From Chthonomonadales bacterium (GTDB taxonomy: Bacteria > Armatimonadota > Chthonomonadetes > Chthonomonadales > Chthonomonadaceae): 16,009 nucleotides of DNA. Positions within the stretch are counted from its first letter, which is position 1. Every line of letters starts with the position of its first letter. Made by a program: the position numbers and the translations under genes. This document shows positions 1 through 16,009 of the stretch, in pieces. The notes beneath the pieces are model-generated. The model saw only the letters and a program-made list of their open reading frames with translations. It was not told the DNA's origin and made no database searches. The DNA is taken from positions 1 through 16,009 of the forward strand of contig JBBQPO010000139.1 of NCBI GenBank assembly GCA_038217285.1, read 5' to 3'.

Positions 1-91
1 CTGGTACCGAGACGCTCTGTGCCTCTCCACACACTGCGCCTGTCAGTAACCACGCCGCCACTATTCCTGCCCCTATTAGCATCCGTCGCAT
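1..91 (-). CDS. N-terminus of a secreted protein (partial, runs off the window start)
   Basis: Not in the ORF track. Minus strand ATG at 91 (TTG at 94) preceded by GAGGGAG; reads MRRMLIGAGIVAAWLLTGAVCGEAQSVSVP..., i.e. basic n-region, hydrophobic h-region and G-E-A|Q cleavage site of a Sec signal peptide. Confidence 0.65.
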   Translation of the reverse strand, partial: MRRMLIGAGIVAAWLLTGAVCGEAQSVSVP

Positions 92-178
92 CAAGTCTCT
101 CCCTCATAGATACGTTCTGTCGTGTACTGTCTCGGCTCGCATCCTGCATGACTGCAACCACCCCAATCCTCTGCGCTT

Positions 179-934
179 TTAGGGCCCGGTCTTGGTGCGG
201 ATCAGGGCGACGCGGTAGAAGAGGCTGCGGCGGAGGTGAAAGTCCTGACCCTCTCGCAGGCCGAACGACTCTGGCATGGCGCGGTACTCCGGCAGAGAGT
301 AGGCGCGCAGCACGGAGGCGGGGCCGTCGTGGCGCGTGAGGCGGTTCATTCCGGTCAGCGTGGAGACGGCGCGGAAGAGGTACCAGGCCGACCAGGCCCG
401 GCGCAGATCGTTGACCAGCCAGCCATGCCGCGCCACGCGCTCCATCTCCCGTAAGGCGATCACGCTCTGTTCGAACCCGAAATGATGGAAGGCCAGCGAA
501 CAGAGGACATAGTCCACGCTAGCGTCCGCGAAAGGCAGCCGAAACGCATCGCCGCGCACCAACCGAATCTCCTTCTCCGCCCCGACCTCTTCGCGAGCAA
601 ACCGCAGGATCGGTGGGCTGAAATCCAGTCCGAGGATCCGTACAGGCACCCCCTCTCGACCTGCGAGCGCCGTTACCGCCTTTGGCAGGTCGCCGGACCC
701 CGTCGCGACATCGAGAAACGTCACGGGCCGCGCCGCGAACGTCGGATCGGATTTCGCGGCGCGCAGCCAGAGCTTCGTCTGGCGCGCGACGACCGGCGTT
801 CCGCCCAGAAAGCGGTTGGCGCGCTGGACATCGGTCATGCTAGCGCGAAAATCGGCGTAAGGCTGTCCCTCGTCGTCGATCAGCTCCTCCTCGTCTATGC
901 GAGAAGGCGTATCCCACTCCAACAGGCTCTTCAA
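179..934 (-). CDS. Class I SAM-dependent methyltransferase (type often found beside polyketide synthases)
   Basis: 251 aa; motif I FLDVATGSGD, GLDFS, GDAFRLPFADASVDYV, SLAFHHF, NDLRR, HDGPASVLRAY. TTG at 934 is the first possible start after an in-frame upstream TGA; GAGGAG lies about 15 nt upstream. Confidence 0.92.
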   Translation of the reverse strand: MKSLLEWDTPSRIDEEELIDDEGQPYADFRASMTDVQRANRFLGGTPVVARQTKLWLRAAKSDPTFAARPVTFLDVATGSGDLPKAVTALAGREGVPVRILGLDFSPPILRFAREEVGAEKEIRLVRGDAFRLPFADASVDYVLCSLAFHHFGFEQSVIALREMERVARHGWLVNDLRRAWSAWYLFRAVSTLTGMNRLTRHDGPASVLRAYSLPEYRAMPESFGLREGQDFHLRRSLFYRVALIRTKTGP

Positions 935-971
935 GGGTCTGTACTGCGTCTCCTCTTCGTAGAATTCTCAA

Positions 972-997
972 GACTGTGAGGGCCGCCGTGACGTTGC
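972..997 (-). promoter_or_regulatory. Candidate ECF-sigma-type promoter for the methyltransferase (GCAAC-N17-AGTC)
   Basis: Minus strand GCAAC (997-993), 17-nt spacer, AGTC (975-972), about 40 nt upstream of the TTG start. Degenerate version of the motif seen at four other sites. Confidence 0.3.
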
Positions 998-1012
998 CCT
1001 TCCCGCTGACAT

Positions 1013-1038
1013 TGAACTTTCGACATACATAAGGCGTA
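1013..1038 (+). promoter_or_regulatory. Candidate ECF-sigma-type promoter for the ketosynthase-P450 unit (TGAAC-N17-CGTA)
   Basis: TGAAC 1013-1017, 17-nt spacer, CGTA 1035-1038 in the AT-richer divergent intergenic region; AAC / CGT cores are typical of ECF sigma promoters. Confidence 0.45.
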
Positions 1039-1165
1039 CACCTGTATAGTTCACGAATTACCGAGGCTATCCCGCTTTTGGCCACCATCACCGTTGGAAA
1101 AACGGAAAGGCTGACCGACAAGCTAGATGGCAGACCTGCTTCTTAAAGAGCGGGCGGAGGCGAAA

Positions 1166-2428
1166 TTGCAGGCATTTGACAGAGCGACGAATCGACGGCG
1201 TGTGGTGGTCACCGGAATAGGGGCGATCACGCCTATCGGCATTGGGGTCGATGGACTACGGGCAGGGTTGCGGAGCGCACAGTCGGCAGTCCACACGATC
1301 ACCGACTTCGACACCTCTGCTTTCGTCACGCATATCGCGGCGACGGTGAAAGACTTCGACGCGATGCCTTATCTGGACGGCAAAAAGCTGAAACGCCTGG
1401 ATAAGTTCTCCCAGTTCGCGGTCGCCGCCGCCAAAATGGCCGTCTCGGACGCGCACCTCGATCTGGACCGGGAGGACCGCAACCGGGTCGGCGTCTGTCT
1501 GGGTACCGCGCTGGGGGGCATCTCTTTCGCCGAAGCGCAGTACCCGAAGTTTATGGCGCAGGGCCCGCACGGCGTCAATCCGATGCTCGCCCTCAGCGTC
1601 TTCAACGGGGCTGGCTCGTGCAACGTCGCCATAGAGCTAGGCATCAACGGCCCGGCCACGGCCAATGGCGACTCCTGCGCCGCCTCTCCGATCGCCATCG
1701 GGCATGCGGTCGATATGATTCGCGCCGACCGGACCGACATCATGCTGGCAGGCGGCTCGGAAGCGCCGCTGTCGCCGCTCTGTTTCGGCGCATTCGCCAT
1801 CATCCGCGCCATGAGTCAGCGCAACGCCGATCCGCAGGCGGCCTCCCGCCCGTTCGACAAAGAGCGCGACGGCTTCGTGATGGCGGAAGGGGCGACGATG
1901 CTCGTCCTGGAAGAACTGGAGCATGCGCAGAAACGCGGGGCGCAGATCTACGGCGAGATACTGGGCCACGCCTGCACCAACGACGCCTTCCACATGACGC
2001 AGCCCCGCCCGGACGGAAGTCAGACCGCGCGCTGTATGCGCGACTGTCTGCGCGAAGGCGGTATCGCAGCAGAGCAGGTAGACTATATCAATGCCCACGG
2101 CTCCAGCACAATGCTCAACGATAGCTCGGAGACCACGGCGATCAAAAAAGTGTTCTGCGACACCGCGTATGACATTCCTATCAGCGGCACCAAGGGCGCG
2201 CATGGCCACGCGCTGGGCGCGACAGGCGCCTGGGAGGCCGCCATCAGCCTGCTGGCCCTCCGCGACGACTGGCTTCCACCGACCCTCAATCTGACCACTC
2301 CCGACCCGGCCTGCGATCTCGACTATATTCCGGAGACAACGGGGCGCTCGCAGCGCGTGAACTATGTCCTGTCCAACTCCTTCGGCTTCGGGGGCATCAA
2401 CGCCTGCCTGCTCTTCGGGCGCGTCTAG
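1166..2428 (+). CDS. fabF: Beta-ketoacyl-ACP synthase II family protein (FabF-like ketosynthase, probably a secondary-metabolism paralogue)
   Basis: RRVVVTGIG, catalytic Cys in NGDSCAAS (TGC 1676-1678), SRPFDKERDGFVMAEG, INAHGSST, KGAHGHALGA, SNSFGFGG: Cys-His-His triad intact. The ORF opens at ATG 1127, but in-frame TTG 1166 has GGAGG 5 nt upstream and is preferred. Confidence 0.93.
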   Translation: MQAFDRATNRRRVVVTGIGAITPIGIGVDGLRAGLRSAQSAVHTITDFDTSAFVTHIAATVKDFDAMPYLDGKKLKRLDKFSQFAVAAAKMAVSDAHLDLDREDRNRVGVCLGTALGGISFAEAQYPKFMAQGPHGVNPMLALSVFNGAGSCNVAIELGINGPATANGDSCAASPIAIGHAVDMIRADRTDIMLAGGSEAPLSPLCFGAFAIIRAMSQRNADPQAASRPFDKERDGFVMAEGATMLVLEELEHAQKRGAQIYGEILGHACTNDAFHMTQPRPDGSQTARCMRDCLREGGIAAEQVDYINAHGSSTMLNDSSETTAIKKVFCDTAYDIPISGTKGAHGHALGATGAWEAAISLLALRDDWLPPTLNLTTPDPACDLDYIPETTGRSQRVNYVLSNSFGFGGINACLLFGRV

Positions 2429-2446
2429 GCCACCGGATTCGCCCTC

Positions 2447-3856
2447 ATGCAGACTTCCCGGACGGAACACACAGTAAGCCCTCCCCAGCACCCGATTTTC
2501 GGCCATCTCCCGGCGTTTCGAAAAGACGCGCTGGGATTTCTGACGCACTGTGCGCGCAGCTACGGCAACGTCGTGCCGCTGCGGATGCTGCACAAGCCCG
2601 CCTTTCTGCTGCTGGATTCGGCGGACATCGAGCGGGTGCTGGTCACGGATCACAAGGATTTCCGGAAGGCGCAGTGGCTCCGTACCGCCGCCGTGCGCCG
2701 GGTGCTCGGAGAGGGCCTGGTGACCGCCGAGGGGGAAGAGTGGCGGCGGCAGCGCCACGCCTGTCAGCCCGCCTTCCAGCCCCGGCGCATGGAGAGTTAT
2801 GGGGCCATCATCGCATCCCTCGCGCACCGTACTCTGGCAGAATGGGAGCCAGGTCAGACGCGCCCCCTCCAGCAGGATATGGCGCATCTGGCCCTGCAGA
2901 TCGTGGCCCAGACGCTTCTCGACGTGGATGAGATGGGATGGTCGGCAGAGGCAAGTGCGGCCGTGGACACGCTGATGGCCCGCTTTACGGGGCAGCGCAG
3001 CCTCTTCGGTATGATCCCCCTACCCGCCAGTCGTGCCGAAAAGCAGGCGGCACGCCAACTGAACCAGGTGGTGGAAAAACTCCTCCACAGCCATGCCACG
3101 CGAACGGAAACCGGCCCCCCGGATCCGAAACAGTCGGATATGCTCTCTCTCTTAAAGCAGTCGATCAGTGCGGGAGGCGAAGGAAGGCATGGGCCTCTCC
3201 TTCACGAACAGGTGAAGACGTTTCTCTCGGCAGGGCACGAGAGCTCGGCCCTCACGCTTGTCTGGGCTTTCCTGCTCCTCGCCCGCGCCCCCGAAGCGGA
3301 GGCGGCGATGGCCTCGGAACTGCAAACCGCGCTCCAGGGCCGTTCCCCTGCCTACGCCGACCTGCCCAACCTGCCCTTTACACGGGCGATCATTCAAGAG
3401 ACGCTGCGTCTCTATCCCCCCGTCTGGATGACAGGCCGACAGTCCCTGCGCCCTTGCGAAATCGGCGGTTTTCGAGTTCCGGTCGGCGCTTTCATCATGA
3501 CCAGTCAATGGGCCGTGCAGCGTCTGCCGCAGCACTTCCCCTGCCCCGACGAATTCCGTCCCGAGCGCTGGATAAATGGCGAAACCGCCGATCTTCCCCG
3601 CTTCGCCTACTTCCCTTTTGGCGGCGGCCCGCGCATCTGCATCGGTCAGAACTTCGCGCTGGTCGAAGCCATTCTTCTCCTGGCAACCATCGCGCAGCGC
3701 TTCCGTTTGGAACCCGAGTCCGAAGCCTCCTCCCAACCCTGGCCCAGCATGACTCTCCGCCCCCCGGCCGGAACCATGATGCGGTTGACTTCCAGGTCCT
3801 TGGGGAGAACCTCCGCTGTCATGCCACCGGATACTCGGCTTCGACTTTTGCCTTGA
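2447..3856 (+). CDS. Cytochrome P450
   Basis: 469 aa; WRRQR C-helix motif, I-helix AGHESS, K-helix ETLR, PERW, heme-binding FPFGGGPRICIG (Cys TGC 3638-3640). Starts 18 nt after the ketosynthase stop. Confidence 0.96.
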   Translation: MQTSRTEHTVSPPQHPIFGHLPAFRKDALGFLTHCARSYGNVVPLRMLHKPAFLLLDSADIERVLVTDHKDFRKAQWLRTAAVRRVLGEGLVTAEGEEWRRQRHACQPAFQPRRMESYGAIIASLAHRTLAEWEPGQTRPLQQDMAHLALQIVAQTLLDVDEMGWSAEASAAVDTLMARFTGQRSLFGMIPLPASRAEKQAARQLNQVVEKLLHSHATRTETGPPDPKQSDMLSLLKQSISAGGEGRHGPLLHEQVKTFLSAGHESSALTLVWAFLLLARAPEAEAAMASELQTALQGRSPAYADLPNLPFTRAIIQETLRLYPPVWMTGRQSLRPCEIGGFRVPVGAFIMTSQWAVQRLPQHFPCPDEFRPERWINGETADLPRFAYFPFGGGPRICIGQNFALVEAILLLATIAQRFRLEPESEASSQPWPSMTLRPPAGTMMRLTSRSLGRTSAVMPPDTRLRLLP

Positions 3857-4283
3857 TACAGCGCAGGGTCTTCCCGGCGATATTCTCGACAAAAAGCCTC
3901 CCGACGATATACTTCGCGAACAGCGGCCCTAGCACAGGGACGGGATAGCCCAGCTCATGGTAGATCGAGACGTGGACCCCGTTGGCCCGCTTCTCCAACT
4001 TCCACTCCACCCACATCCCCTTCGTCATCCCGGCGGTATGGACGAAGGTGATCCGATTTGTCTCCGGGAACAGCTCCTGCCGCGCGCTCCACTTCACTGG
4101 AAAGCCGTCCCGCGACGCCCCATAATCGGCCTGTTTATGGCGCTCCGACTGCTGCCGGATGTGCATATACCGATAGTGCGGCAGCATCGTGGGCCAGTCC
4201 TGAATATCGGCGGCAAGCTGGAAGATGCGCGGGCATATCTGCTCCGGATCCCCTTTTATATCGATCTCATTGACAGTCTTCAT
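3819..4283 (-). CDS. SRPBCC / polyketide cyclase-dehydrase family protein
   Basis: 154 aa from ATG 4283 (AAGGGAG just upstream), not 4589 as in the ORF track. MKTVNEIDI...IFQLAADIQDWPTMLPHYR...WSARQ...ITFVH...GMWVEWKLE...TLRCIKAKVE fits the Bet v1/START-fold aromatase-cyclase pattern. Confidence 0.88.
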   Translation of the reverse strand: MKTVNEIDIKGDPEQICPRIFQLAADIQDWPTMLPHYRYMHIRQQSERHKQADYGASRDGFPVKWSARQELFPETNRITFVHTAGMTKGMWVEWKLEKRANGVHVSIYHELGYPVPVLGPLFAKYIVGRLFVENIAGKTLRCIKAKVEAEYPVA

Positions 4284-4292
4284 ACACTCCCT

Positions 4293-4317
4293 TACGCCGC
4301 CTGCCTGCCTTCGTTCC
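4293..4317 (-). promoter_or_regulatory. Candidate ECF-sigma-type promoter for the cyclase gene (GGAAC-N16-CGTA)
   Basis: Minus strand GGAAC (4317-4313), 16-nt spacer, CGTA (4296-4293), 9 nt before the ATG. Caveat: the CGTA abuts the Shine-Dalgarno-like TAAGGGAG. Confidence 0.45.
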
Positions 4318-4341
4318 TTTCGCAGTTGCATGAGGCCCACG

Positions 4342-5472
4342 TTAATCCGGGAGGCTGATTGGGTCTCCGGAGAGTGGGGGCAGCGGGTGCGGACGTACCA
4401 GTGCGCCGCCCTGTTCGTACGATTCGATGACGGCCCAGGTGTACTCCAGCGCTGCGAGGGCATCGCGGCCGGAGGCGCGGACGTCTTCACGGGGTACGCC
4501 GTTGGTGATGTCTTCCAGAAACGCGTGGATACGGCGCGGGAAGGTCTGCCCGAAATCCGTGATACCGGAGCTGGTGACTTCCGGGCCACCCGGTCCGCCG
4601 CCCGCCATCTTCGCCGGGTCGCCCGCTTTCGCGGGGCTCGGCGCGGGCCAGAAGGTCACCTTCTCGATGCAGTTCTCGATGCAGAAGGTGCCGTGCGTTC
4701 CCGCCACCTCCAGGCTCCACCATCCGCCCAGTCCGTAGGTCGCATCGCCGCGCTGGCTGAGAAGGTACCCGACACAGTCGTTGGCGAAGCGCACATGGAT
4801 GCTAACGGTAGAGAGCATGACATCTCCCACCCGCCGCCGGAAGCCCGGACGGTTCACGAACGCCTGCACATGCGTGATGTCACCGCAGAAGTGCCGCATG
4901 ACGCTGAAAGGATGCGACAGAAACGCCTTGAGGTGCCCATAAGGAAACCCCTTGAAGCGAGACGAGGTGGGAGGGCTGTACGCCTCTTCGCCCGCAGAGA
5001 ACCCCATCTTATGCAGACAGTAGACCAGTTCTCCCACCTGACCGGAGTCCATATACTCTTTCGCCTTTTCCGCTGGCGGCGTAAAGTAGTGGTTCAGGTT
5101 GCAGCCGATGATGACCTTCTTCTGCGCCGCCTTCGCCACCATCTCCCGCGCCTGCCCGATATCGGCTGACAGTGGCTTCTCGACCAGAACGTGTTTGCCC
5201 GCCTCCATCGCCTGCATAGCCGGCTCGTAGTGCCAACTGCCGTTCTCAAACCCGCCCGTCGTCACGTCTACGATGTCCAGCGGTTCGTTCCGCAGCATCT
5301 CGTCCAGGCTATAGTACGCCTTCACCCCGAATTTCGCCGCCGCTGTATCCGCCCGCTCCTTCACGACATCGCAGACCGCGACGAGATCCCCGAGCGGCTC
5401 CTCTTTGTAGGCATTCGCATGCCCGGTCCCGATGCCCCGCATTCCTACCAGTCCTACTTTTAATGACGCCAT
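4342..5472 (-). CDS. Gfo/Idh/MocA family NAD(P)-dependent oxidoreductase
   Basis: N-terminal Rossmann KVGLVGMRGIG, VAVCD, GKHVLVEKPL signature. ATG 5472 chosen because GGAG lies 6 nt upstream (ORF opens at 5484). Confidence 0.93.
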   Translation of the reverse strand: MASLKVGLVGMRGIGTGHANAYKEEPLGDLVAVCDVVKERADTAAAKFGVKAYYSLDEMLRNEPLDIVDVTTGGFENGSWHYEPAMQAMEAGKHVLVEKPLSADIGQAREMVAKAAQKKVIIGCNLNHYFTPPAEKAKEYMDSGQVGELVYCLHKMGFSAGEEAYSPPTSSRFKGFPYGHLKAFLSHPFSVMRHFCGDITHVQAFVNRPGFRRRVGDVMLSTVSIHVRFANDCVGYLLSQRGDATYGLGGWWSLEVAGTHGTFCIENCIEKVTFWPAPSPAKAGDPAKMAGGGPGGPEVTSSGITDFGQTFPRRIHAFLEDITNGVPREDVRASGRDALAALEYTWAVIESYEQGGALVRPHPLPPLSGDPISLPD

Positions 5473-5533
5473 TATCATCTCCATTTTCGAATTTCGATTG
5501 ATCGTACTGCCGAACTACATTGTGCCTGCCCCG

Positions 5534-5809
5534 CTACCCTTTCTCCTTCTTCTCGATAAGGGCCACTATCTGCTGCACCGTCGTATCCCCAATGATGAAA
5601 AGGGAGGATGGCATATTTTCGACGTCGTCTTCCGAAATCTCGAAATCGACTTCTAGTTTCATCATGAGTTCGACAATATCCATCGAGTCCGGGGGCGTTC
5701 CTCGTTTCTCCCAGAAGAGATCGTCGAGCGTAGTCTCAGGCTTTATGATCTCCTTAGGAATATCTAACGAGGCTGCAAGGGACTTTTGCACACGCAGGAA
5801 TGTAGTCAT
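5534..5809 (-). CDS. Acyl carrier protein-like protein (atypical, with loop insertions)
   Basis: 91 aa acidic protein from ATG 5809 with AGGAG upstream; DSMDIVELMMKLE resembles ACP DSLDxVELVMALE (Ser42, codon 5686-5684) and TTVQQIVALI resembles ACP helix IV. Confidence 0.8.
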   Translation of the reverse strand: MTTFLRVQKSLAASLDIPKEIIKPETTLDDLFWEKRGTPPDSMDIVELMMKLEVDFEISEDDVENMPSSLFIIGDTTVQQIVALIEKKEKG

Positions 5810-5825
5810 GCTGTCTCTCCTTCTT

Positions 5826-7016
5826 TCAGTAGACGTGCATCGAGCCATCTGAGCGACGGACAAGCGGCATATAGGCGCGCTTATAAGGATACTGTGCCGC
5901 CTTCTCCTCGTCGATGTCCAAGCCGAAGCCGGGGGCTTCATTGGGGTGAAGGAAACCGTGCTCCATCTTGCAGACGCCCGAGACGATCTCGTAGGCGGCT
6001 TCGGGGTAGCGGGTCCACTCCTGAACGCCGAAGTTCGGGATGACCGACTGGAGGGCGACGCTGGCGGCCTGGGCGATAGGACCTATGTCGCCGGCTCCGT
6101 GAAAAGCGCTGCGCACGTTGTAGGGTTCGGCGAGAACCATGATCTTCCGGGCTTCGGTCAGGCCGCCGACGTGGAGCGGTTTGATGCGGATGAAATCGAT
6201 CCATTTGTTGACGAAGAGCGGCAGGCAGTCCCAGCGGGAGGTAATGATCTCACCGATGGCGAGCGGGGTTGTGGAGGCGGCGCGAAGGATGGGCCAACTC
6301 TCCCGGTGTTCCGGCATCAAGGGATCTTCGAGGAAGAAGAGACGGTAGGGTTCCAACTCTTTTGCCAACCGGGCCGCTTCGATAGGCTGCAACTGCTCGT
6401 GCGCGTCGTGGAACAGTTCGATCTCCATGCCGAGTTTGTCGCGCATGTGGGCGAAGATTTTGGGAACAGAGAGGAGATAGGGAGTCGGCTCGTATATCTG
6501 TTCCGGCGGCGTTCCGGGGGTGATCGGTGGATTGGAGCCGAGGACGCCCGCGCCGCCGTAGACGCCGACCTGACACCGCACGACCTTGAAGCCCCGCTCT
6601 ATCAGTTTGCGCGCGCTGTCCTCGCACTCGATGACGTCGCGCCCGCTCGCATGGCTGTAGCACATCACGCCGTCCCGCGCCTTGCCGCCCAGGAGTTGAT
6701 AGACCGGCAGTCCGGCCTGCTTGCCTTTGATGTCCCAAAGGGCAAAATCAATGGCGGCAATGGCGGCCATAAAGATCGGTCCGCCGCGCCAGTAGCCCTG
6801 TCGGTAGAGCAGTTGCCAGGTGTCTTCGATACGCTGCGGGTCGCGACCTATGAGCAGGTGGCTCATGTGGCGAATGGCCTCTGCCACGATAGGCTCGCTG
6901 CCGTTGAGCGTGCCTTCACCGACGCCGTACAGGCCCGGCACGTCGGTCATTACCTTGACGAACACATAGTTCCGTCCGGGACATGTTACGATCACTTTGA
7001 CATCGGTTATCTTCAA
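5826..7016 (-). CDS. manD: Enolase-superfamily acid-sugar dehydratase, D-mannonate dehydratase (ManD/RspA) subgroup
   Basis: 396 aa from TTG 7016 (GGAGG 9 nt upstream). KITDVKVIVTCPGRNYV, GEGTLNG, YWRGGP, ALWDIKGK, metal ligands HDAH / LEDP / IGE, FHGAGD. Exact substrate cannot be read from sequence. Confidence 0.9.
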   Translation of the reverse strand: MKITDVKVIVTCPGRNYVFVKVMTDVPGLYGVGEGTLNGSEPIVAEAIRHMSHLLIGRDPQRIEDTWQLLYRQGYWRGGPIFMAAIAAIDFALWDIKGKQAGLPVYQLLGGKARDGVMCYSHASGRDVIECEDSARKLIERGFKVVRCQVGVYGGAGVLGSNPPITPGTPPEQIYEPTPYLLSVPKIFAHMRDKLGMEIELFHDAHEQLQPIEAARLAKELEPYRLFFLEDPLMPEHRESWPILRAASTTPLAIGEIITSRWDCLPLFVNKWIDFIRIKPLHVGGLTEARKIMVLAEPYNVRSAFHGAGDIGPIAQAASVALQSVIPNFGVQEWTRYPEAAYEIVSGVCKMEHGFLHPNEAPGFGLDIDEEKAAQYPYKRAYMPLVRRSDGSMHVY

Positions 7017-7082
7017 TGCGCTCTCCCTCCACGCCTTTGTCCGATTCATTTCGCGACCGTCCGACCTTTCCCCTGCAAGATT

Positions 7083-7102
7083 TGCGATGGAAGGCGATGG
7101 AA
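7083..7102. repeat. 10-bp-period tandem direct repeat (TGCGATGGAA GGCGATGGAA), possible operator
   Basis: Directly visible, 9/10 identical units, 67 nt upstream of the manD start. Confidence 0.5.
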
Positions 7103-7256
7103 TGAATTCCTTCGCTAGAGGCGCGCAGCGCCGAAGGTCCGCCTGCGCGGACACAAAGCCGTTGACTTTCGAGAGCGGAAAGGGTCAGGGGACCGAACAT
7201 CCGAGCAGGGAGATGCAGTATGTGCAGCGAATATCTCCGAGAGGAGACCTTCTATC

Positions 7257-8351
7257 GTGAGCCGATCCATTCGATATTTTATTTTGCTTCTGATGCTCTG
7301 CCTCTTCGTGTTTCCGGACGCTTCGGCCCAACGCCTTGCAGTCGTGGTGATGCGGGGAGGACAGGAACAGGACCCTAACATTGGCGACGTCCATTTTGAC
7401 CGGCCTTTCGGGATCGGGTTCGATGCCAAAGGGAACTACTACACGGTCGCGATGGAGGGCAACCAGGTCTGCAAGCATACGCCCGAGAACGCTCGCCACA
7501 AAATCATGCGGGTGGTCGCGGGGACGGGGGCGAAGGGGAACACCGGAGACAACAGTGACAGCCGCAAAGCCCTGCTCAACGGCCCGCATAACCTGCTCGT
7601 TCTGCCGTCCGGAGATCTTTATGTGGCGGATACGTGGAACAACCGGGTTCGCAAGATCGAGGCACGTACCGGGCGCATCACAGCGTTCGCGGGGACAGGG
7701 GAACACGGCTATAGCGGCGATGGTGGGCCTGCACTCCAGGCGACCTTCGGAGGGATCTACTGCCTTGCCTTCGACGCAACGCGGGAGAATCTCTATCTCG
7801 ACGACCTCGACAATCATCGGATTCGCAAAATCTTACTCCGGACAGGCGTTGTTTCGACCATCGCGGGGAACGGCAAGTCCGGAGTGCCGCAGGAGGGTGC
7901 GGACGCTCTCACCAGTCCTCTCCTCGATCCCCGCGCCATCGCCCTGGACAGCAGAGGCAACCTCTATATTTTAGAGCGCAGTGGCAACACCTTGCGAGTG
8001 GTAGATAGGAAGGGCCTGATCCGCACCGTCGTTGGAACGGGCAAGGCTGGCCCCTCGGCGGACGATGTTCCTGCACTGAAGGCCACTCTGCGTGGTCCGA
8101 AGCATCTCTGCATTGATCGTGACGACAATGTGCTCATCGCCGACACCGACAACCATGTCATCCGCAAATATCTTCCGCGCGAGGGCCGTATCGTCCGCAT
8201 CGCGGGCACAGGCATGGCCGGTAGTGCTGGCATCGATGGTCCAGCCCTGCAAGCACAGCTCAATCAGCCGCACGGCGTCACTGTGGACGCGAAGGGCATC
8301 GTCTATATTGCGGACAGTTGGAATGACCGCATCGTGAAGATCGTGCCCTGA
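7257..8351 (+). CDS. Secreted NHL-repeat beta-propeller protein
   Basis: Sec signal peptide (MSRSIRYFILLLMLCLFVFPDASA|Q) followed by about six repeats of AGTG..G..GD.G.A..A.L.GP..L.D..G.LY.AD..N.R.RK; GAGGAG upstream of GTG. Confidence 0.9.
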   Translation: MSRSIRYFILLLMLCLFVFPDASAQRLAVVVMRGGQEQDPNIGDVHFDRPFGIGFDAKGNYYTVAMEGNQVCKHTPENARHKIMRVVAGTGAKGNTGDNSDSRKALLNGPHNLLVLPSGDLYVADTWNNRVRKIEARTGRITAFAGTGEHGYSGDGGPALQATFGGIYCLAFDATRENLYLDDLDNHRIRKILLRTGVVSTIAGNGKSGVPQEGADALTSPLLDPRAIALDSRGNLYILERSGNTLRVVDRKGLIRTVVGTGKAGPSADDVPALKATLRGPKHLCIDRDDNVLIADTDNHVIRKYLPREGRIVRIAGTGMAGSAGIDGPALQAQLNQPHGVTVDAKGIVYIADSWNDRIVKIVP

Positions 8352-8404
8352 TAGCGTCCATGCAACGCCGCATACCATAGCGCCCTATTCGAAGGAGAAT
8401 TTTC

Positions 8405-9301
8405 GTGGAGAGAATCCCTGTTTTGCTGGATACCGACATCGGCTCCGACATCGACGATGCGGTCGCGCTCGCCTATCTGCTGCGCCAGCCCGCCTGCGAA
8501 CTGCTGGGCATCACCACTGTCAGCGGCGAACCGGAGCGGCGTGCCAGCCTTGCGGATGCTGTCTGTCAGGCAGGAGGCCGAACGGATGTGCCTGTTCATG
8601 TCGGGGTGGAGAACCCGCTGCTCATCACACAGCGCCAGCCTCGCGCCACGCAGGCCGAAGCTCTCTCCGCCGCTATGCCGCATCGGCTCTTTGGCCGCGA
8701 GAACACCGCCATCGCCTTTCTGCGCGACGCCATCCGCGCGCGACCGGGCGAAATCACCCTGCTGACGATAGGCCCGCTGACCAATATCGCGCTGCTCTTC
8801 GCCCTCGACCCCGAGCTTCCCAGCCTGCTCAAACAGTTGGTGATGATGGGCGGCCGTTTCCATACCCGCGCGCGCAATGGCGGTCTGGCCGAATGGAATA
8901 TACTGTGCGATCCCCATGCGGCTGCGATGGTTTTCGCGGCGCCTGTGCCGCGTCTGGTCGCGGTCGGCCTGGATGTGACCGAGCCGTGCCAGTTGCCCCG
9001 CGACGAGTGCCGCACCCGGTTCGCCGCCGCAGGGGGTCCGCTCGCGCCGGTCGCCGCTATGGCGGAGGTCTGGTTCCGGAGCGTCCCGCACAGCACGTTC
9101 CACGATCCGCTCGCCGCCGCCCTGATCTTCGAGCCCGCGCTCTGCGCGCTGGAGCCGTATCACATCGGGGTGGATCTGACCAGCCCCCACAACCCTGGCC
9201 TAACGCTGCCTCTGCCCGGCGATACGAAGCCGCATCAGGTCGCGGTGCGCGTCGATCCAGCCGCCTTCTTCGCGCACTATTTCGGTATCGTCGGGGCCTG
9301 A
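8405..9301 (+). CDS. Nucleoside hydrolase (IUNH family)
   Basis: Ca-binding DTDIGSDIDD motif, IGPLTNIA, AEWNILCDPHAA, GLDVT, FHDPLA; AAGGAG upstream of GTG. Confidence 0.93.
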   Translation: MERIPVLLDTDIGSDIDDAVALAYLLRQPACELLGITTVSGEPERRASLADAVCQAGGRTDVPVHVGVENPLLITQRQPRATQAEALSAAMPHRLFGRENTAIAFLRDAIRARPGEITLLTIGPLTNIALLFALDPELPSLLKQLVMMGGRFHTRARNGGLAEWNILCDPHAAAMVFAAPVPRLVAVGLDVTEPCQLPRDECRTRFAAAGGPLAPVAAMAEVWFRSVPHSTFHDPLAAALIFEPALCALEPYHIGVDLTSPHNPGLTLPLPGDTKPHQVAVRVDPAAFFAHYFGIVGA

Positions 9302-9326
9302 GTTTCCCGAATTGGAAAGGGTCGAT

Positions 9327-10496
9327 ATGTCCGTGACGTCCCGTTTTCGTCGCATTCTGCTCTGCCCGAATGCGTTCAAAGGCAGCCTTACGGCGCATGA
9401 GGCAGCCCGGGCGATGGCCGAAGGCGTGGCACGGGCCGGAGGGTACGAAACCATCTGCCTGCCCCTGGCAGACGGCGGCGACGGAACCCTGGAGACCCTG
9501 GTGCAAGCGACCGACGGCAGCCTGCACACCGCCTCCGTGCACGACCCGCTCGGCCGCCCCATCAACGCGACCTGGGGCAGGCTCGGCGGGGCACAGAGCG
9601 ATACCGCCGTCATCGAGATGGCGCAGGCGTCGGGCCTGCGCCTGCTCCGCGAGGAGGAGTACGCTCCGCTCCACGCCTCGACCTATGGGACAGGCGAGCT
9701 CATGCGGAGTGCGCTGGACGCGGGCTGCCGTACGCTTCTGGTCGGTATCGGGGGCAGCGCGACCAACGACGGCGGCGCGGGGATGGCACAGGCGCTCGGC
9801 TTTCGCCTGCTCGACGCCGAAGGCAAGGATCTCCCGCCCGGAGGTGCGGCGATCGCGCGCCTCGACCGCATCGCGATCGACGGCAGCCTTCTTCCACCCG
9901 GCCTGGAGGTGATCGTCGCGTGCGATGTGAACAACCCGCTCTGCGGGCCGGACGGCGCCGCCACCATCTACGGCCCCCAGAAAGGCGCGACACCAGCGCA
10001 GGTTCTGCAGATCGATGCCGCGCTCGCTCACTACGCCGCCGTCCTGTGCCGTACCTTTGGCCATAATGTCGCGGAAGCGCCCGGCGCGGGGGCGGCAGGT
10101 GGGCTTGGGGCGGGCCTGCTGGCCTTCTGCGCAGCTCGACTGCAGCCGGGAACCGACATGGTGCTGGATGTGACCGGTTTCGACACCAGGTTGAAGGAAT
10201 GTGATCTGGTGCTGACCGGGGAGGGCCGGATCGACGGCCAGACGACGCGGGGCAAAGTCGTTGCAGGAGTCGCGCGGCGGGCCAGGGCGGCAGGGGTTCC
10301 GGTCATCGCTCTGGCAGGAAGCATTGCGGAGGGAGCCGAGACCCAGTTACGACCGGCAGGGCTTACGGCGGCGCTCAGTATCGTGAATGGCCCCCTCCGC
10401 GTCGAGGAGGCCATGCAGGACGGTTACCGACTGCTACGGGATGCGGCAGAACGCACGATGCGACTGCTGGGAGCCGGAGACGCACCACTGGCCTGA
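9327..10496 (+). CDS. glxK: Glycerate kinase (GlxK/GarK family)
   Basis: PNAFKGSL, PLADGGDGT, IEMAQASGL, ASTYGTGEL, GIGGSATNDGGAG, DVNNPL.GP.GA..YGPQKGA, GAGAAGG, TGEGRIDGQT..GK. ATG 9327 preferred over TTG 9312. Confidence 0.96.
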   Translation: MSVTSRFRRILLCPNAFKGSLTAHEAARAMAEGVARAGGYETICLPLADGGDGTLETLVQATDGSLHTASVHDPLGRPINATWGRLGGAQSDTAVIEMAQASGLRLLREEEYAPLHASTYGTGELMRSALDAGCRTLLVGIGGSATNDGGAGMAQALGFRLLDAEGKDLPPGGAAIARLDRIAIDGSLLPPGLEVIVACDVNNPLCGPDGAATIYGPQKGATPAQVLQIDAALAHYAAVLCRTFGHNVAEAPGAGAAGGLGAGLLAFCAARLQPGTDMVLDVTGFDTRLKECDLVLTGEGRIDGQTTRGKVVAGVARRARAAGVPVIALAGSIAEGAETQLRPAGLTAALSIVNGPLRVEEAMQDGYRLLRDAAERTMRLLGAGDAPLA

Positions 10497-11059
10497 GCGG
10501 GCAGGGTCGTTTTCTGTTCTACCGCAGAATGCTTATTATGTCTGTTTCGCGCCGAGGCCAGGGAGGGCAGGATCAACATCAGCGCCCACAGACCCACCAG
10601 GGTCAGGGCGATCGCGCGCTGCCCGGTCCGGAGGCCCGTGCGCTTGCCCTGCTCGAACTCTGCCACCACCGCCGACCGGCGCAGCCAGAATACCGTCCAT
10701 GTCGCCAGCAACAGCATCGCGCCTATTCCGCCCGGCGAGGCGGCAAAGAAATTGAGCGTGGCATGCAGTCCGTTCGCGCCGGTGACGTCGGCCAGTCGGG
10801 CTCCTACCAGACAGACGACCAAGACTGTCACGCTCATTCCGAGCAGAGCCAGTCGCCCCCAGCGTTTACGCTCCAGCGTCGCCCACACCATTAACAGTAC
10901 CATCGGGCCGACCACCATAAACCGCAGCGAATGCGTCACCAAAAACCCGTGCAGCAACTGATACGACGCCAACATTCCCCAGACTACAGCAAAAAGCGTC
11001 GTTCCTTGATTCGCGACTGGTGGTGTGCCGCGCCGAGCAGGCAACATTCGTTCTGACAT
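10424..11059 (-). CDS. Hypothetical integral membrane protein (about 5 TM helices)
   Basis: 211 aa from ATG 11059; five hydrophobic segments with basic loops (LERKRWGR, WLRRSAV). The extension to 11362 in the ORF track looks non-coding. Confidence 0.7.
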   Translation of the reverse strand: MSERMLPARRGTPPVANQGTTLFAVVWGMLASYQLLHGFLVTHSLRFMVVGPMVLLMVWATLERKRWGRLALLGMSVTVLVVCLVGARLADVTGANGLHATLNFFAASPGGIGAMLLLATWTVFWLRRSAVVAEFEQGKRTGLRTGQRAIALTLVGLWALMLILPSLASARNRHNKHSAVEQKTTLPAQASGASPAPSSRIVRSAASRSSR

Positions 11060-11284
11060 CTCTGAATAAAGTCTCCGCTCTTCCTGGATCGTGGTCCCTG
11101 GACTAACTTTTTGACTCTCCGCCCTCCACGGTAAAAGGGGAAGGGGACGACAACGGCCCGTATATGACAGCGACAGAAGAGTTATTTGAGATCGTAGATG
11201 GTAGACTGCAGGCAGTGCAGCAGAATCAGGGAGAGAAGCGTTACCGCCGATACGAAGCGCTCGGCTCACCGGTACGAGCAGGGC

Positions 11285-11309
11285 GGAACGGCAGTGGAAT
11301 AGATCCGTT
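11285..11309 (+). promoter_or_regulatory. Candidate ECF-sigma-type promoter with no obvious downstream gene (GGAAC-N16-CGTT)
   Basis: GGAAC 11285-11289, 16-nt spacer, CGTT 11306-11309 in the 395-bp intergenic gap. Confidence 0.35.
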
Positions 11310-11386
11310 GAAACAGTGAGTAGACAGCAGAGGCTAACAGTAGCAGTGGTTTCCAGCGACATCGCTTCGGAAACCTGTCGAACAGT

Positions 11387-11392
11387 ATTATA
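11387..11392 (-). promoter_or_regulatory. Perfect sigma70 -10 hexamer (TATAAT), possible promoter of the membrane protein gene
   Basis: Plus strand ATTATA 11387-11392, just downstream of the terminator; no recognisable -35. Confidence 0.35.
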
Positions 11393-11404
11393 CCCTACAA
11401 TGCG

Positions 11405-11456
11405 AAAAGACCGAGAAGGACGAAACGAACAGCCTTTCTTCCTTCTCGACGGTCTT
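11405..11456 (-). terminator. Intrinsic terminator-like hairpin after the ytxH / DUF948-like pair
   Basis: Minus strand AAGACC-gtc-GAGAAGGA...TCCTTCTC-GGTCTT ending in a TTTT run, beginning at the stop codon of 11455-11802. Confidence 0.6.
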
Positions 11457-11802
11457 AAAATACTTTGCGGACGAAGTTCATCACGCGCGCCGCTACCAGC
11501 ACTCCCGTAAGGGCAGCGCCGACGCCCCGCGCCTTGCTCGTCACCTGGAACCCGGTGCTATTGGCATTACCGAGCAGGTTCTGGGTATGGACATGGACGA
11601 TGTTGGCGGTGTTCGACGCTTTCATAGCCACGCCCTTGGCCTGATTGCTCACCCGTTTCACCTGGGTACGGGCTTCCGTCAACACAGGCATCACCTTCTG
11701 ATAAAGCTTGAACATTCCTACCACCAGCACCACCGACCAGACGATGCTGATGACAAAGTAGAGAAACGATGCCAATATCCACCAGCTCGGTACCTCTTGC
11801 AT
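11455..11802 (-). CDS. Membrane-anchored coiled-coil protein, DUF948/YoxC/YtxG-like
   Basis: 115 aa from ATG 11802 (AAGGAG upstream); N-terminal TM helix, then an amphipathic helical region; directly downstream of a YtxH gene, a common pairing. Confidence 0.7.
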   Translation of the reverse strand: MQEVPSWWILASFLYFVISIVWSVVLVVGMFKLYQKVMPVLTEARTQVKRVSNQAKGVAMKASNTANIVHVHTQNLLGNANSTGFQVTSKARGVGAALTGVLVAARVMNFVRKVF

Positions 11803-11862
11803 GAACCTCTCCTTCTCTTTCACGCTCCGGCCGGTCCAGCCCGGAAGCGACCCTCACAAACG

Positions 11863-11898
11863 ACAGCGCGCCAGGAAAAGCCTCTCCCGACGCGCCGC
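11863..11898 (-). terminator. Strong intercistronic hairpin (weak terminator or mRNA-stabilising stem)
   Basis: Minus strand GCGGCGCGUCGGGAGA-GGCU-UUUCCUGGCGCGCUGU: 16-bp stem that needs G-U pairs, so it folds only on the minus strand; followed by CGUUUGU. Confidence 0.55.
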
Positions 11899-11936
11899 GT
11901 AAATGTCAATTCGAACGGAATGCGTTCGCAGCCACC

Positions 11937-12245
11937 CTAGTTGACTTTGTTCACACCCGCATGCGCCGTGTCGGCAATGCTATCGATGGCATCGTTCGCC
12001 TTCGACTGGCCCCGATTGATGACGCTCTGGGCCTGATCGGCGACCTGTCCCCACTTGTCTTTGGCGGTTGCCGCGACATTGGAGGCCACATCGGACGCCT
12101 TATCGCGATATTCGCTGGTCTTGTCACCGATCAAGCGGCGCGTCGATTCGCCATCCTGGGGCGCGTAGAGCAGCGCCACGGCCGCACCCGTCGCCGCACC
12201 CAGCAGGAAAAATACCAGGTTACTTCCGAAGTTATCTTTGTTCAT
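11937..12245 (-). CDS. ytxH: YtxH-domain general stress protein
   Basis: FFLLGAATGAAVALLYAPQDGESTRRLI is the YtxH signature, followed by a LEA-like helical tail; GAGGAG upstream. Confidence 0.93.
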   Translation of the reverse strand: MNKDNFGSNLVFFLLGAATGAAVALLYAPQDGESTRRLIGDKTSEYRDKASDVASNVAATAKDKWGQVADQAQSVINRGQSKANDAIDSIADTAHAGVNKVN

Positions 12246-12331
12246 TGCTTTCGCTCCTCATCCGAATCTTTGGTCTGGCGATAAACCTTAGGAAATCTGT
12301 CTGCTCGCCATATCGCCCAGTCTTTCGTATT

Positions 12332-12357
12332 GACGCACAGGCGAGCGAGTTTGTTCC
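12332..12357 (-). promoter_or_regulatory. Candidate ECF-sigma-type promoter for ytxH (GGAAC-N17-CGTC)
   Basis: Minus strand GGAAC (12357-12353), 17-nt spacer, CGTC (12335-12332), about 87 nt upstream of the ytxH start; fits a general-stress gene. Confidence 0.55.
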
Positions 12358-12372
12358 GAGAAGAGTCGCTTT

Positions 12373-14340
12373 CTAGCGTAATCGATTCACGATGGCATCG
12401 ACGTCGTAGACGCAGCCTCCCCAGGTTCCGCCACCGACCGCTTGCAGCGCCGCCCAGAGGCGCGTATCGTCCGGCAGGTCGGGGTCCGCCGTAAGGTCGG
12501 GGCGGCTCTGCCGCTGCTCCAGCACCCGTTTGCCCTCTTCTGCCCCGAACAGATTCTCGCCTGCCCCGATGAGGTTCACGCTGCCTTCGAGACGGTTGCG
12601 GTCGATGACGATCTCCAGCAGGTCGTCGTCGAGCACCTTGCCGATAGGCCCGCCCGCCAGAGCCTCCGGGCCGATATGCCCGATGCAGGCTCCGGTCGAA
12701 ACCCCAGAGAAGCGCGCATCCGTCAGCACGGCGACCGTCTTGCCCCACGGCAGGAACTTCAGCGCGGAGGTGATCTGATAGATCTCCTCCATCCCCGCAC
12801 CGATCGGTCCCCGGCAGATCAACACCAGCACGTCGCCCGGCCGGATGCGCGTCCCGGTTTCAGCGGTATCTCCGGCCTGCTCCGCCGCGTCGTTATGGGC
12901 CGCTTTGATCGCCGTGATGGCCGCTCGCTCGCTTGTAAAGACCCGCGCCCGGCCCCGCTTGCGATAGACGCCGTCGGCGTCCACGACCGCCGGATCGATT
13001 GAGGTGCTTTTAATGACCGCGCCGTCCGGGCAGAGATTGCCGACCGGAAAAGTCACCGTCGAGGTCAGGCCGCGCTCCTTCGCCCGCGTCGGGGTCAGGA
13101 TCACGTCGTCAGGGTCCACGCCGTCCTGCTCGCGCAACCGTTCGCGCAGCCGTTCGCGCCGCTCGGAGCGCTCCCACTCCTCCAGATTCTCTCCCAGCGT
13201 CTTGCCCGTCACCGTCAGGCAGTCGAGCGCCAGCAAGCCGCGCTCGCGCAGATGCAGCATCACCTCCGGCACTCCTCCCGCCAGAAACAGGCGCACGGTC
13301 GGGTGGTCGGTCGGGCCATTCGGCAGCACATCGACCAGTCGCGGCACCGCCAGGTTGATGCGATGCCAGTCCTCCACGGTCGGGCGGCGCAGTCCGGCGG
13401 CATGGGCGATGGCCGGGATATGGAGCAGCAGATTGGTCGAGCCACCGCAAGCAGCATGGACCATCATAGCGTTGCGCACCGCCGCGTCCGTCAGGATGTC
13501 ACGAGTCTTGAGGCCACGGGTATCCAGCGCCATCAGGGCGACCGCCGAGCGCCGCGCGGCATCGAGCCAGATCGGCTGCCCGGAGGGAGCCAGGGCGGAG
13601 TGCGGCAACGACAGCCCCAGCGCCTCGCCCACCACCTGGGCCGTGGCCGCCGTCCCGAAGAACTGGCAGCCGCCGCCGGGCGTGGCACAGGCGCGACAGC
13701 CCAGTTCCGCCGCCTCTTTCAGGGTGATCTGCCCATGCGCGAACCGTGCCCCAACGCTCTGAATCTTGCCCGCGTCCTCGCCTCCCTCGGCAGGCAACGT
13801 CACCCCGCCGGGCACGAGCACGCTCGGCAGAAACGGCACTCCCGCCAGGGCGATCAGCATGGCCGGAAGCCCTTTGTCGCAGGTCGCCACGCCCAGCACG
13901 CCGCGCCGGTTCGGCAGCGAGCGAATCAACCGTCGGAAGACGATGGCAGCGTCGTTGCGGTAAGGCAGACTGTCCATCATGCCGGTGGTCCCCTGCGAGC
14001 GTCCGTCACAGGGGTCGGAGACGTAGCCCGCGAACGGCAGCCCACCCTGCGCGGCGATCTCGACCGCTGCCGCGTGCGTCAGCAGCCCAACCTCCCAGTG
14101 GCCGGTATGGTAGCCCAATGCGACGGGTTTGCCATCCGCATCCCGAATACCGCCCTGTGTGCTCAGGAGCAGGAACTCCTTTCGATTCAACTCTTTCGGG
14201 TTCCAGCCCATCCCCGCGTTCTGGGAGAGCGCGAACACATCGCCGCTTGGCCGGGAGATCAGCATCTCCGGCGTCAGCGGCAGCTCGCCCAGCGGCCCCT
14301 TCGCCTTCGTCTGCACCTCGTAAATGTCTGTCTGCGTCAT
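12373..14340 (-). CDS. yjhG: YjhG/YagF family D-xylonate dehydratase (IlvD/Edd superfamily)
   Basis: 655 aa; family motifs [87 protein letters not shown]...[10 protein letters not shown]. Confidence 0.96.
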
Positions 14341-15482: not shown

Positions 15483-15542
15483 CTGCACTCCTCCCTGCTC
15501 CGCAATACACCAGACCCTCCCCTAAATCCTTTGTCTGAACTG

Positions 15543-15562
15543 GGAGAAGGTAGGAGAAGGTA
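15543..15562. repeat. Perfect 10-bp tandem direct repeat (GGAGAAGGTA x2), possible operator
   Basis: Directly visible, 61 nt upstream of the serine hydrolase start; a degenerate third unit AGGAATGGAA follows at 15564-15573. Confidence 0.55.
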
Positions 15563-15616: not shown

Positions 15617-16009
15617 GTTACTGTCCAGCCTGAAATCGCCGGGAATCTTTTGCCTTATCGGCCCGTAGGATACCTATGCTGACACGCGAAGCCTTCCAAT
15701 CTGTCTACGACCAGGGACCAGAGGCCGTCTTTACTCTCCTCACGGCGCTCGAACAACGTGTCGTCGAGTTGGAAGCCCGTCTGAACAAGGACAGCCACAA
15801 CAGCAGTAAGCCCCCCTCAAGCGATGGCCTGAGCAAGAAACCCACTCCCCGCTCCCTGCGCGAAAAAACAGGTCGCAAACAAGGCGGACAGAACGGCCAT
15901 CTCGGCACAACCCTCTCCATTTCCACCTCGCCCGATCACACGATGCCCCATATCCCCACCTGCTGTGAGGGGTGCGGAGCCTCCCTGGAAGGGGCCGAAG
16001 TGATCGCAG
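15617..16009 (+). mobile_element. IS66-family insertion sequence (ISBst12-like single-ORF group), left end, partial
   Basis: Putative left terminal inverted repeat GTTACTGTCCAGC at 15617, similar to GTAAC...CAGC ends of this group, 59 nt upstream of a transposase start. Confidence 0.75.
15676..16009 (+). CDS. IS66-family transposase, N-terminal part (partial)
   Basis: Not in the ORF track. MLTREAFQSVYDQGPEAVFTLLTALEQRVVELEARLNKDSHNSSKPPSSDGLSKKPTPRSLREKTGRKQGGQNGHLGTTL...CEGCGASL: coiled coil, NSSKPPSSD, GGQxGHxG and CxxC zinc-finger start. Confidence 0.93.
   Translation, partial: MLTREAFQSVYDQGPEAVFTLLTALEQRVVELEARLNKDSHNSSKPPSSDGLSKKPTPRSLREKTGRKQGGQNGHLGTTLSISTSPDHTMPHIPTCCEGCGASLEGAEVIA

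Follow-up and report, generated by a model that had tools for sequence, protein, structure and literature searches.

A conserved gene cluster of Chthonomonadaceae as a candidate for phenolic lipid synthesis by a FabF-like ketosynthase and an SRPBCC protein

Can a ketosynthase (KS) of the FabF type that has no chain-length factor (CLF) partner take the place of a type III polyketide synthase (PKS) in the synthesis of a phenolic lipid? The question is raised by a 16,009-nucleotide stretch of DNA from a Chthonomonadales bacterium of the family Chthonomonadaceae (phylum Armatimonadota; GenBank assembly GCA_038217285.1, contig JBBQPO010000139.1, positions 1 to 16,009), which is referred to as a whole as the window. 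Near one end, the window carries a single KS gene together with genes for a cytochrome P450, an SRPBCC/START protein, and a class I S-adenosylmethionine (SAM)-dependent methyltransferase (MT), and all four genes named in the initial annotation of this DNA were found (Table 1). That annotation suggested that the KS and the SRPBCC protein, the latter acting as a cyclase, replace a type III PKS. The suggestion gains support from comparative evidence, namely, the family to which the MT belongs and the gene order in a related locus (L003). On balance, and as judged from sequence comparisons, the genes more likely than not represent a conserved Chthonomonadaceae cluster for an alkylresorcinol-type phenolic lipid, with the KS and the SRPBCC protein in the role of the type III PKS.

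Conserved linkage of the ketosynthase, methyltransferase, and SRPBCC genes

Linkage was assessed by matching the exact "longest contig" values among the homologue tables of the KS, the MT, and the SRPBCC protein (the best 120 of each), in which nonmatching values carry no information. Among the matches listed, 20 contigs were shared by the KS and the MT, 16 by the KS and the SRPBCC protein, and 19 by the MT and the SRPBCC protein. All three were found on 13 contigs, and six of these triple matches were shorter than 10 kb (5,158, 5,606, 5,632, 7,978, 8,200, and 8,328 bp). A control in which the values were shifted by 1 to 59 bp (contigs of at least 2.5 kb) gave a mean of 0.3 to 0.4 matches. On the shared contigs, the identities of the KS, MT, and SRPBCC homologues fall together (for instance, 91/89/84%, 87/87/84%, 80/79/75%, and 80/69/59%, respectively). 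This is compatible with joint inheritance of the three genes, of which the KS is the most constrained. Since the gene arrangement recurs in relatives, it is more than a chance juxtaposition. At least 120 KS homologue clusters have identities of 75 to 91%, several of them located on contigs of 3.5 to 4.9 Mb; the best 120 of 487 MT homologues (E ≤ 1e-10) have identities of 63 to 95%, and the best 120 of 183 SRPBCC homologues have identities of 55 to 91%. In each case, those named by organism belong mostly to Chthonomonadaceae or Armatimonadetes.

The conserved linkage of the KS to the MT and the cyclase, on which the initial annotation depended, is thus borne out by 13 listed contigs and also by an operon in locus L003. 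A contig search with the KS returned at least 79 loci, and among those listed there were two close relatives (L002 and L003), while 75 of the 79 were FabF-type loci of other phyla. In L003, genes for an MT (40% identity to that of the window), a flavoprotein, an SRPBCC protein (45%), and a KS (79%) follow each other on a single strand directly after hemL, with 12- and 3-nt gaps and an overlap of 4 nt between neighboring genes. The flavoprotein, for which the geranylgeranyl reductase family is the best model, stands in place of the P450. Because the order is therefore hidA-like, hidB-like, SRPBCC, and KS, the last two genes occupy the position of the type III PKS. About 770 bp downstream of the L003 KS, at 11997 to 12047 on the forward strand, there is a stretch of 17 residues that shares 82% identity with the KS C terminus; it follows a small open reading frame (ORF) and a PIN-domain gene and is possibly the remnant of a rearrangement. 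The second relative, L002 (Chthonomonadales), has the layout of the window, with the MT (63%) divergent from a KS (75%) and a P450 (51%).

A more distant arrangement of this kind was found in the Elusimicrobiota locus L008 (6162 to 11233, forward strand), where one operon flanked by two-component regulators encodes a PF04199 cyclase, a PF03364 SRPBCC protein, an ICMT-family MT, a B12-radical SAM enzyme, and a divergent FabF-like KS. The divergent KS, the PF03364 protein, an MT, and the lack of fab genes are common to L008 and the window, whereas the ICMT-type MT, the PF04199 cyclase, and the B12-radical SAM enzyme set L008 apart. The L008 KS is 47% identical to the window KS and keeps the canonical SxKSMxGH motif. 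SrsA and BpsA are examples of type III PKSs that are accompanied by MTs of the ICMT family. L008 is an independent parallel, an uncharacterized cluster in its own right.

The initial annotation listed KS-beta/CLF, FabG, FabD, FabH, and PlsX as missing from the window. Accordingly, a tblastn search (E ≤ 1) with FabD, FabG, FabH, PlsX, canonical acyl carrier protein (ACP), and KS queries detected no fab gene, second KS, or CLF there, and no second KS-like sequence was detected by tblastn in L002, L003, L008, or the Gemmatimonadota locus L001. The further claim that this is not a housekeeping fab locus agrees with the comparison loci: among the 43 loci of FabF homologues that include the complete 10 kb upstream, 40 contain one or more of the genes plsX, fabH, fabD, fabG, and acpP, and the three without any of them are L002, L003, and L008. 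A type III PKS was likewise not detected in the window, L001, L002, L003, or L008 (tblastn with three type III PKS queries, E ≤ 1e-6).

Affinities of the methyltransferase, the SRPBCC protein, and the ketosynthase

As far as its sequence tells, the window MT is a member of the family found in MT-oxidoreductase-type III PKS (hidA-like) operons and not a UbiE. Its top NCBIfam match is NF004851 (PRK06202, "hypothetical protein"), at 109 bits compared with 53 bits for UbiE/MenG, and the same model is the top match of the MTs of L002 (107 bits) and L003 (140 bits). A tblastn search of plasmids with the L003 MT retrieved 25 records, and a type III PKS was located within about 3 kb in all 11 that were examined, which span Paludisphaera, Sphingobium (two), Deinococcus (two), Roseomonas, Falsirhodobacter, Novosphingobium, Paracoccus, Microvirga, and Paenibacillus. 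Eight of the nine annotated loci also had a flavoprotein gene or a gene for an NAD-binding oxidoreductase in the adjacent position. Four of the PKS-linked MTs were scanned and matched NF004851 alone (136 to 309 bits, two of them, at 136 and 142 bits, being below the curated cutoff), and two scanned partner flavoproteins matched geranylgeranyl reductase family, QhpG, and MenJ models, as does the flavoprotein of L003. The window MT itself shares 35% identity with the MTs that accompany the type III PKSs on the Roseomonas and Paludisphaera plasmids.

Operons of this type are reported from planctomycetes, where, according to PMC10896814, MT-FAD oxidoreductase-type III PKS operons account for 58 of 96 type III PKS genes and have the gene order of cyanobacterial hidABC. 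Heterologously expressed planctomycete operons (the host used was C. glutamicum enriched in malonyl-CoA) give pentadecyl- and heptadecyl-type alkylresorcinols, with the MT homologue appearing to C-methylate, and srsABC makes alkylquinones (PMC10896814). Cyanobacterial hid clusters are described likewise in PMC8086630.

The SRPBCC protein is, by profile and by predicted fold, closest to the aromatase/cyclases of type II PKSs. An AlphaFold model built with 48 sequences had a pLDDT of 90, and a Foldseek search with this model placed TTHA0849 first, followed by ZhuI, WhiE-ORFVI, TcmN, StfQ, and BexL, which fill ranks 3 to 15 with query-normalized TM scores of 0.70 to 0.83; START folds with other functions score close behind. 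Among PDB entries, the family profile matched BexL (E = 7.5e-11), TTHA0849 (4.6e-7), WhiE-ORFVI (9e-6), ZhuI (2.8e-5), and StfQ (9e-4), with the Coq10-like 1t17 at E = 0.096. In addition, the sole plasmid match of the protein is an annotated Streptomyces aromatase/cyclase. Residues Tyr37, Trp65, His109, and Glu148 are invariant in the SRPBCC family. When 8,859 ORFs taken from 93 sources were scanned with a hidden Markov model (HMM) of the family, the training alignment of which included L003 and L008, the only matches were in the window, L003, and L008, and there was none in the 11 type III PKS loci. Such an association with this type of KS, and the lack of one with type III PKSs, is expected if the SRPBCC protein supplies the cyclization that a type III PKS performs itself.

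The KS is, as judged by its motifs and phylogeny, a distinct offshoot of FabF. Its catalytic set is complete (Cys184, His324, Lys356, His361, and a GFGG loop with F421), and an alternative start, a TTG at position 1166, would match the 416- to 420-amino-acid homologues. The best solved relatives are housekeeping FabFs, with 403 bits compared with 279 bits for the actinorhodin KS-alpha, which, with the missing CLF, upholds the initial exclusion of a canonical type II PKS. Identity to canonical FabFs is about 48 to 51%, and the look-alikes in a protein atlas are generic FabF clusters. Against TIGR03150, the fabF equivalog model, the KSs of the window, L002, and L003 score 513.7, 512, and 507 bits, respectively, whereas the fab-operon FabFs of two other Armatimonadota loci, L016 (fabD-fabG-acpP-fabF) and L037 (plsX-fabH-fabD-fabG-fabF-rnc), score 631 and 672 bits. 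At the 135 columns conserved in at least 85% of 73 comparison FabF-type sequences, the window KS deviates 20 times and the clade members 20 to 33 times, compared with a median of 6 and a maximum of 24 in the comparison sequences.

The altered motifs surround Cys184, His324, Lys356/His361, and the GFGG loop. In the clade, Ser replaces Ala before the active Cys, HGSST replaces HGTST, SGTKGxHGH replaces SSTKSMTGH, and GHA replaces GYG; the loop reads GFGGIN. At least three of four signature motifs are present in 119 of the 120 clade members listed. As a motif control, the KS was searched against 50%-identity library representatives, none of those listed exceeding 53% identity, and of the 80 single-domain proteins in the top 150 representatives, only 4 had at least two of the four motifs.

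A maximum-likelihood tree built from 82 sequences joined the KS clade to the KS of Gemmatimonadota L001 (59% identity) with a support of 100 and, more weakly (88 to 89), to four variant KSs of Planctomycetota and the KS of Elusimicrobiota L008. The other half of the tree, away from the KS clade, held L016 and L037. A union of the KS clade with L016 and L037 was rejected by the AU test (delta lnL, 144; P = 5e-5); the tested group was named after inspection of the tree, long branches are involved, and the unconstrained tree does not show L016 and L037 as a sister pair. The comparison of the KS with FabF called for initially therefore places it apart from the fab-operon FabFs of its own phylum, a result that bears indirectly on whether it is the sole fabF of its genome. 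The four Planctomycetota variants (L005, L006, L034, and L073) have the same altered "TAL..VF" pocket loop as the window KS and lie within fab operons carrying two KS genes, the order in L034 and L073 being fabD, variant KS, fabG, acpP, and second KS. Since these variants sit in fab operons, the wider branch consists of FabF paralogues that are not all secondary metabolic.

Outside Armatimonadota, the KS clade has its nearest relative on L001, a 2-kb contig of a Gemmatimonadaceae metagenome-assembled genome, with most of the signature motifs present. A downstream 144-amino-acid ORF has no Pfam or SRPBCC HMM match, on a contig too short to show neighbors, and the contig may be misbinned.

The P450 resembles oxidases of lipids and isoprenoids (CYP46, CYP97, CYP102, and CYP4) and also CYP175. 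Among its plasmid homologues (151 records), the two contexts looked at had no informative neighbors. A carotenoid role, considered because of the resemblance to CYP97 and CYP175, was dropped since no carotenoid gene was linked.

Proposed pathway and competing explanations

Viewed against known systems, the cluster has partial likenesses in three directions. With the hidABC (hierridin) operons, to which srsABC and ftp are related systems, and with the planctomycetal operons, it shares an MT of the NF004851/PRK06202 family and, in L003, a geranylgeranyl reductase-like flavoprotein and the order MT, oxidoreductase, and condensing enzyme. As in those operons, one small condensing system would make a product that an oxygenase and an MT then tailor. 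The condensing enzyme of hidABC is a type III PKS, however, and not a FabF-like KS with an SRPBCC protein, and its oxidoreductase is a FAD-dependent HidB-like protein, whereas the window and L002 encode a P450. A minimal type II PKS likewise combines a decarboxylating thiolase-fold KS with a Cys-His-His triad and a monodomain START-fold protein, but it includes a CLF; in the present cluster, the KS is of the FabF type and not a KS-alpha, neither a conserved dedicated ACP nor a ketoreductase was found, the SRPBCC protein has Gln at the position of TcmN Arg69, and the tailoring genes are of the type III PKS-operon kind. Housekeeping FabF has the same catalytic residues and is matched by the same equivalog model, but the window KS scores 120 to 160 bits lower than the fab-operon FabFs of its phylum, has altered motifs, lacks fab neighbors, and is phylogenetically separate. 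Because the tested defining features of housekeeping FabF loci, minimal type II PKSs, and hidABC are only partly present, the cluster was assigned to none of them, and it is best described as a putative hid/srs-type phenolic lipid cluster in which the type III PKS is replaced by a FabF-derived KS and an aromatase/cyclase-like protein. A search of the open-access full-text literature surfaced only ordinary type II PKS work and no described KS-SRPBCC-MT system.

For this cluster, the sequences establish the identities of the genes, the complete catalytic residues of the KS, the linkage, and the family of the MT, and we infer the following substrate, number of extensions, type of ring, and order of tailoring steps. 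The KS, presumably a homodimer like FabF, would take a fatty acyl thioester from fatty acid synthesis and add about three malonyl-ACP units without reduction. The SRPBCC protein would then fold the poly-beta-keto chain and cyclize it by aldol condensation to a resorcinol-type ring. The hidA-like MT would methylate this ring, by either O- or C-methylation, and the P450, or the hidB-like flavoprotein that replaces it in some relatives, may hydroxylate or oxidize the ring to give a methoxy-alkylphenol or an alkylquinone.

Several observations weigh against this assignment. To our knowledge, no characterized FabF-type homodimer builds an unreduced poly-beta-keto chain, and the FabG of the host could reduce the intermediates, which would have to escape it. 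The carrier of the growing chain is uncertain, since the ACP-like ORF of the window has no counterpart in L001, L002, L003, or L008. The KS passes the TIGR03150 cutoff (493.75 bits), although marginally; its closest structural relatives are FabFs, and its conservation resembles that of a housekeeping enzyme. The scores of the MTs of the window, L002, and L003 are below the curated cutoff of NF004851 (243 bits), and the P450 is not homologous to HidB. In HMMER alignments, the SRPBCC family has a near-invariant Gln69 opposite an Arg of BexL and WhiE-ORFVI, which we take to correspond to TcmN Arg69 and to be catalytic (PDB entry 2res is the R69A mutant); automatic (JGI) labels and language-model look-alike clusters, moreover, name the protein a RatA-family member. 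No SRPBCC gene was found within 10 kb in L002. In the window, the four genes are contiguous, as annotated initially, but they are neither codirectional nor a single operon: the MT is divergent from the KS-P450 pair and the SRPBCC gene is convergent on the P450, with a 38-bp overlap of the 3' ends (3819 to 3856), so that three transcription directions are involved. Finally, Chthonomonas calidirosea is reported to scatter genes that are operonic elsewhere (PMC4959169), and for this reason the absence of fab neighbors and of a type III PKS from 16 kb is weak evidence.

The same scattering would suit an alternative explanation in which the KS is a fatty acid-elongating enzyme, that is, the family's own FabF or a second beta-ketoacyl-ACP synthase (KAS) for an unusual, e.g., longer, starter, while the ring comes from a type III PKS encoded elsewhere and the MT, P450, and SRPBCC protein tailor or bind the product. 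The equivalog score, the FabF structures as best matches, and the identities of 75 to 91% in at least 120 clusters all fit this explanation, as does the plateau of the KS at about 78 to 80% on shared contigs on which the MT and the SRPBCC protein drop to 59 to 69%, and the Planctomycetota variants show that related KSs can stand in fab operons beside a second KS. It leaves unaccounted for, however, that the L003 KS gene shows translational coupling with the SRPBCC gene in the PKS position of a hid-type operon, that the SRPBCC family occurs only with this type of KS and at none of the 11 type III PKS loci, that 119 of 120 listed clade members have altered active-site motifs, and that the KS is separate from the fab-operon FabFs of its phylum. 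We therefore regard a purely fatty acid-elongating role as unlikely, though still deserving serious consideration.

If the ring is given up altogether, the cluster could modify a fatty acid or another lipid, with the KS extending it, the P450 or flavoprotein hydroxylating it or altering its saturation, the MT methylating it, and the SRPBCC protein binding or transferring it. Such a function appears improbable: the relationship of the P450 to lipid and isoprenoid oxidases, the weak matches of the MT to fatty acid and phthiotriol O-methyltransferases (22 to 26 bits), the geranylgeranyl reductase model of the L003 flavoprotein, and the frequent lipid binding by SRPBCC folds would accommodate it, but the specific family of the MT is that of type III PKS operons, the SRPBCC profile favors aromatase/cyclases, and L008 has a second cyclase-type gene. 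Still more improbable, to the point that it merits little weight, is a quinone-cofactor module of a UbiE/MenG-like MT, a UbiH-like hydroxylase, and a Coq10/RatA-like START protein standing beside a FabF paralogue by coincidence. The Pfam Ubie_methyltran and TIGR01934 models do match the MT weakly (48 to 53 bits), and JGI labels ("UbiE" for the MT and "RatA" for the SRPBCC protein) and the RatA-family names given automatically to the atlas look-alikes of the SRPBCC protein point the same way. The NF004851 score of the MT is, however, twofold those of the UbiE models, and a true UbiE beside a UbiA prenyltransferase in locus L041 is a different protein (PF01209, 187 bits); Coq10-like 1t17 is a far weaker match of the SRPBCC protein than the aromatase/cyclases are, and the linkage to the KS recurs on 13 listed contigs and in a tight operon.

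Surrounding genes and significance of the cluster

The window has a G+C content of about 62%, and the features around the four genes are given in Table 1. A promoter region between the MT and KS genes is presumed from their divergent layout; a consensus scan for promoters and terminators found nothing above expectation and no sigma-70-like site in this spacer.

Table 1. Features of the window
Feature	Position	Strand	Remarks
Arg/Gly/Ala-rich ORF, 5'-open	1..339	+	No family match; antisense overlap with MT 3' end
SAM methyltransferase (MT), class I	179..934	-	PF08241/PF13649/PF01209; NCBIfam NF004851 (PRK06202)
MT-KS divergent intergenic region	935..1126	.	Presumed promoter region
FabF-like ketosynthase (KS), no CLF partner	1127..2428	+	PF00109 + PF02801
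Cytochrome P450 (CYP170/CYP46/CYP97-like)	2447..3856	+	PF00067, 265 bits; 19 nt downstream of KS
SRPBCC/START protein, type II PKS aromatase/cyclase-like	3819..4283	-	PF03364, 33 bits
Gfo/Idh/MocA oxidoreductase	4342..5484	-	Same strand as SRPBCC, directly upstream of SRPBCC; system membership uncertain
Divergent ACP-like carrier protein	5534..5809	-	DSMD motif at phosphopantetheine site; system membership uncertain
D-Mannonate/galactonate (ManD-family) dehydratase	5826..7154	-	Sugar-acid catabolism
NHL-repeat beta-propeller protein	7257..8351	+	ScyF/ScyE family models, 72 and 40 bits, below cutoffs
Nucleoside hydrolase	8405..9301		
Glycerate kinase	9312..10496	+	Sugar-acid catabolism
YjhG/YagF-type xylonate dehydratase	12373..14340	-	Sugar-acid catabolism; 1136 bits
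DUF6444 (transposase-associated) ORF	15676..16008	+	Extends past window 3' end

The SRPBCC gene is the last of a minus-strand string that begins with the ManD-family dehydratase and continues with the ACP-like ORF and the Gfo/Idh/MocA oxidoreductase. A counterpart of the oxidoreductase (27% identity) follows the MT in L002, and none is present in L003. The ACP-like ORF, to which the ACP mentioned in the initial annotation corresponds, lies 1.25 kb from the SRPBCC gene and is separated by 16 and 49 nt from its ManD-family and Gfo/Idh/MocA neighbors, an odd place for a carrier protein, between genes for a sugar-type dehydratase and an oxidoreductase. It matches Pfam PP-binding at E = 0.02 and a home-made ACP HMM at E = 1.7e-6, and its weak PDB sequence matches are nearly all ACPs. 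A single-sequence model (pLDDT, 74) likewise has ACPs as fold neighbors, with about 30% identity to AcpP structures. The ORF may belong to the KS/SRPBCC system or have another role.

The sugar-acid genes and the nucleoside hydrolase look unrelated to the KS cluster, and the DUF6444 ORF at the end of the window hints at a nearby mobile element. The ORF at the opposite end is probably not a gene. ScyF and ScyE, to which the NHL-repeat protein is weakly similar, are scytonemin-associated families.

A broader proposal is somewhat more tentative than the assignment of the cluster itself, and we regard it as nearly as likely as not. The FabF-derived, CLF-less KS and the single-domain aromatase/cyclase may constitute a third, independently evolved route to alkylresorcinol-type phenolic lipids, beside type III PKSs and DarAB-type systems. 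The pair would have displaced the type III PKS in a conserved hid-type tailoring cluster and been inherited together with the tailoring genes in Chthonomonadaceae, with a parallel in Elusimicrobiota, and it would represent a new minimal PKS architecture drawing on the ACP pool of fatty acid synthesis. Displacement within a conserved tailoring operon would also be a natural experiment in the nonorthologous replacement of a condensing enzyme.

If this is true, a housekeeping-type KAS II enzyme can become an iterative, nonreducing PKS through a few active-site changes and the addition of a START-fold cyclase, with no CLF, and the boundaries among type II fatty acid synthases, type II PKSs, and type III PKSs would blur. 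Clusters of this class are expected to escape rule-based genome mining because their KS is annotated as fabF. The poorly studied Armatimonadota, in turn, would gain a family-wide phenolic lipid or alkylquinone, which may function in the membrane, in respiration, or as protection against stress.

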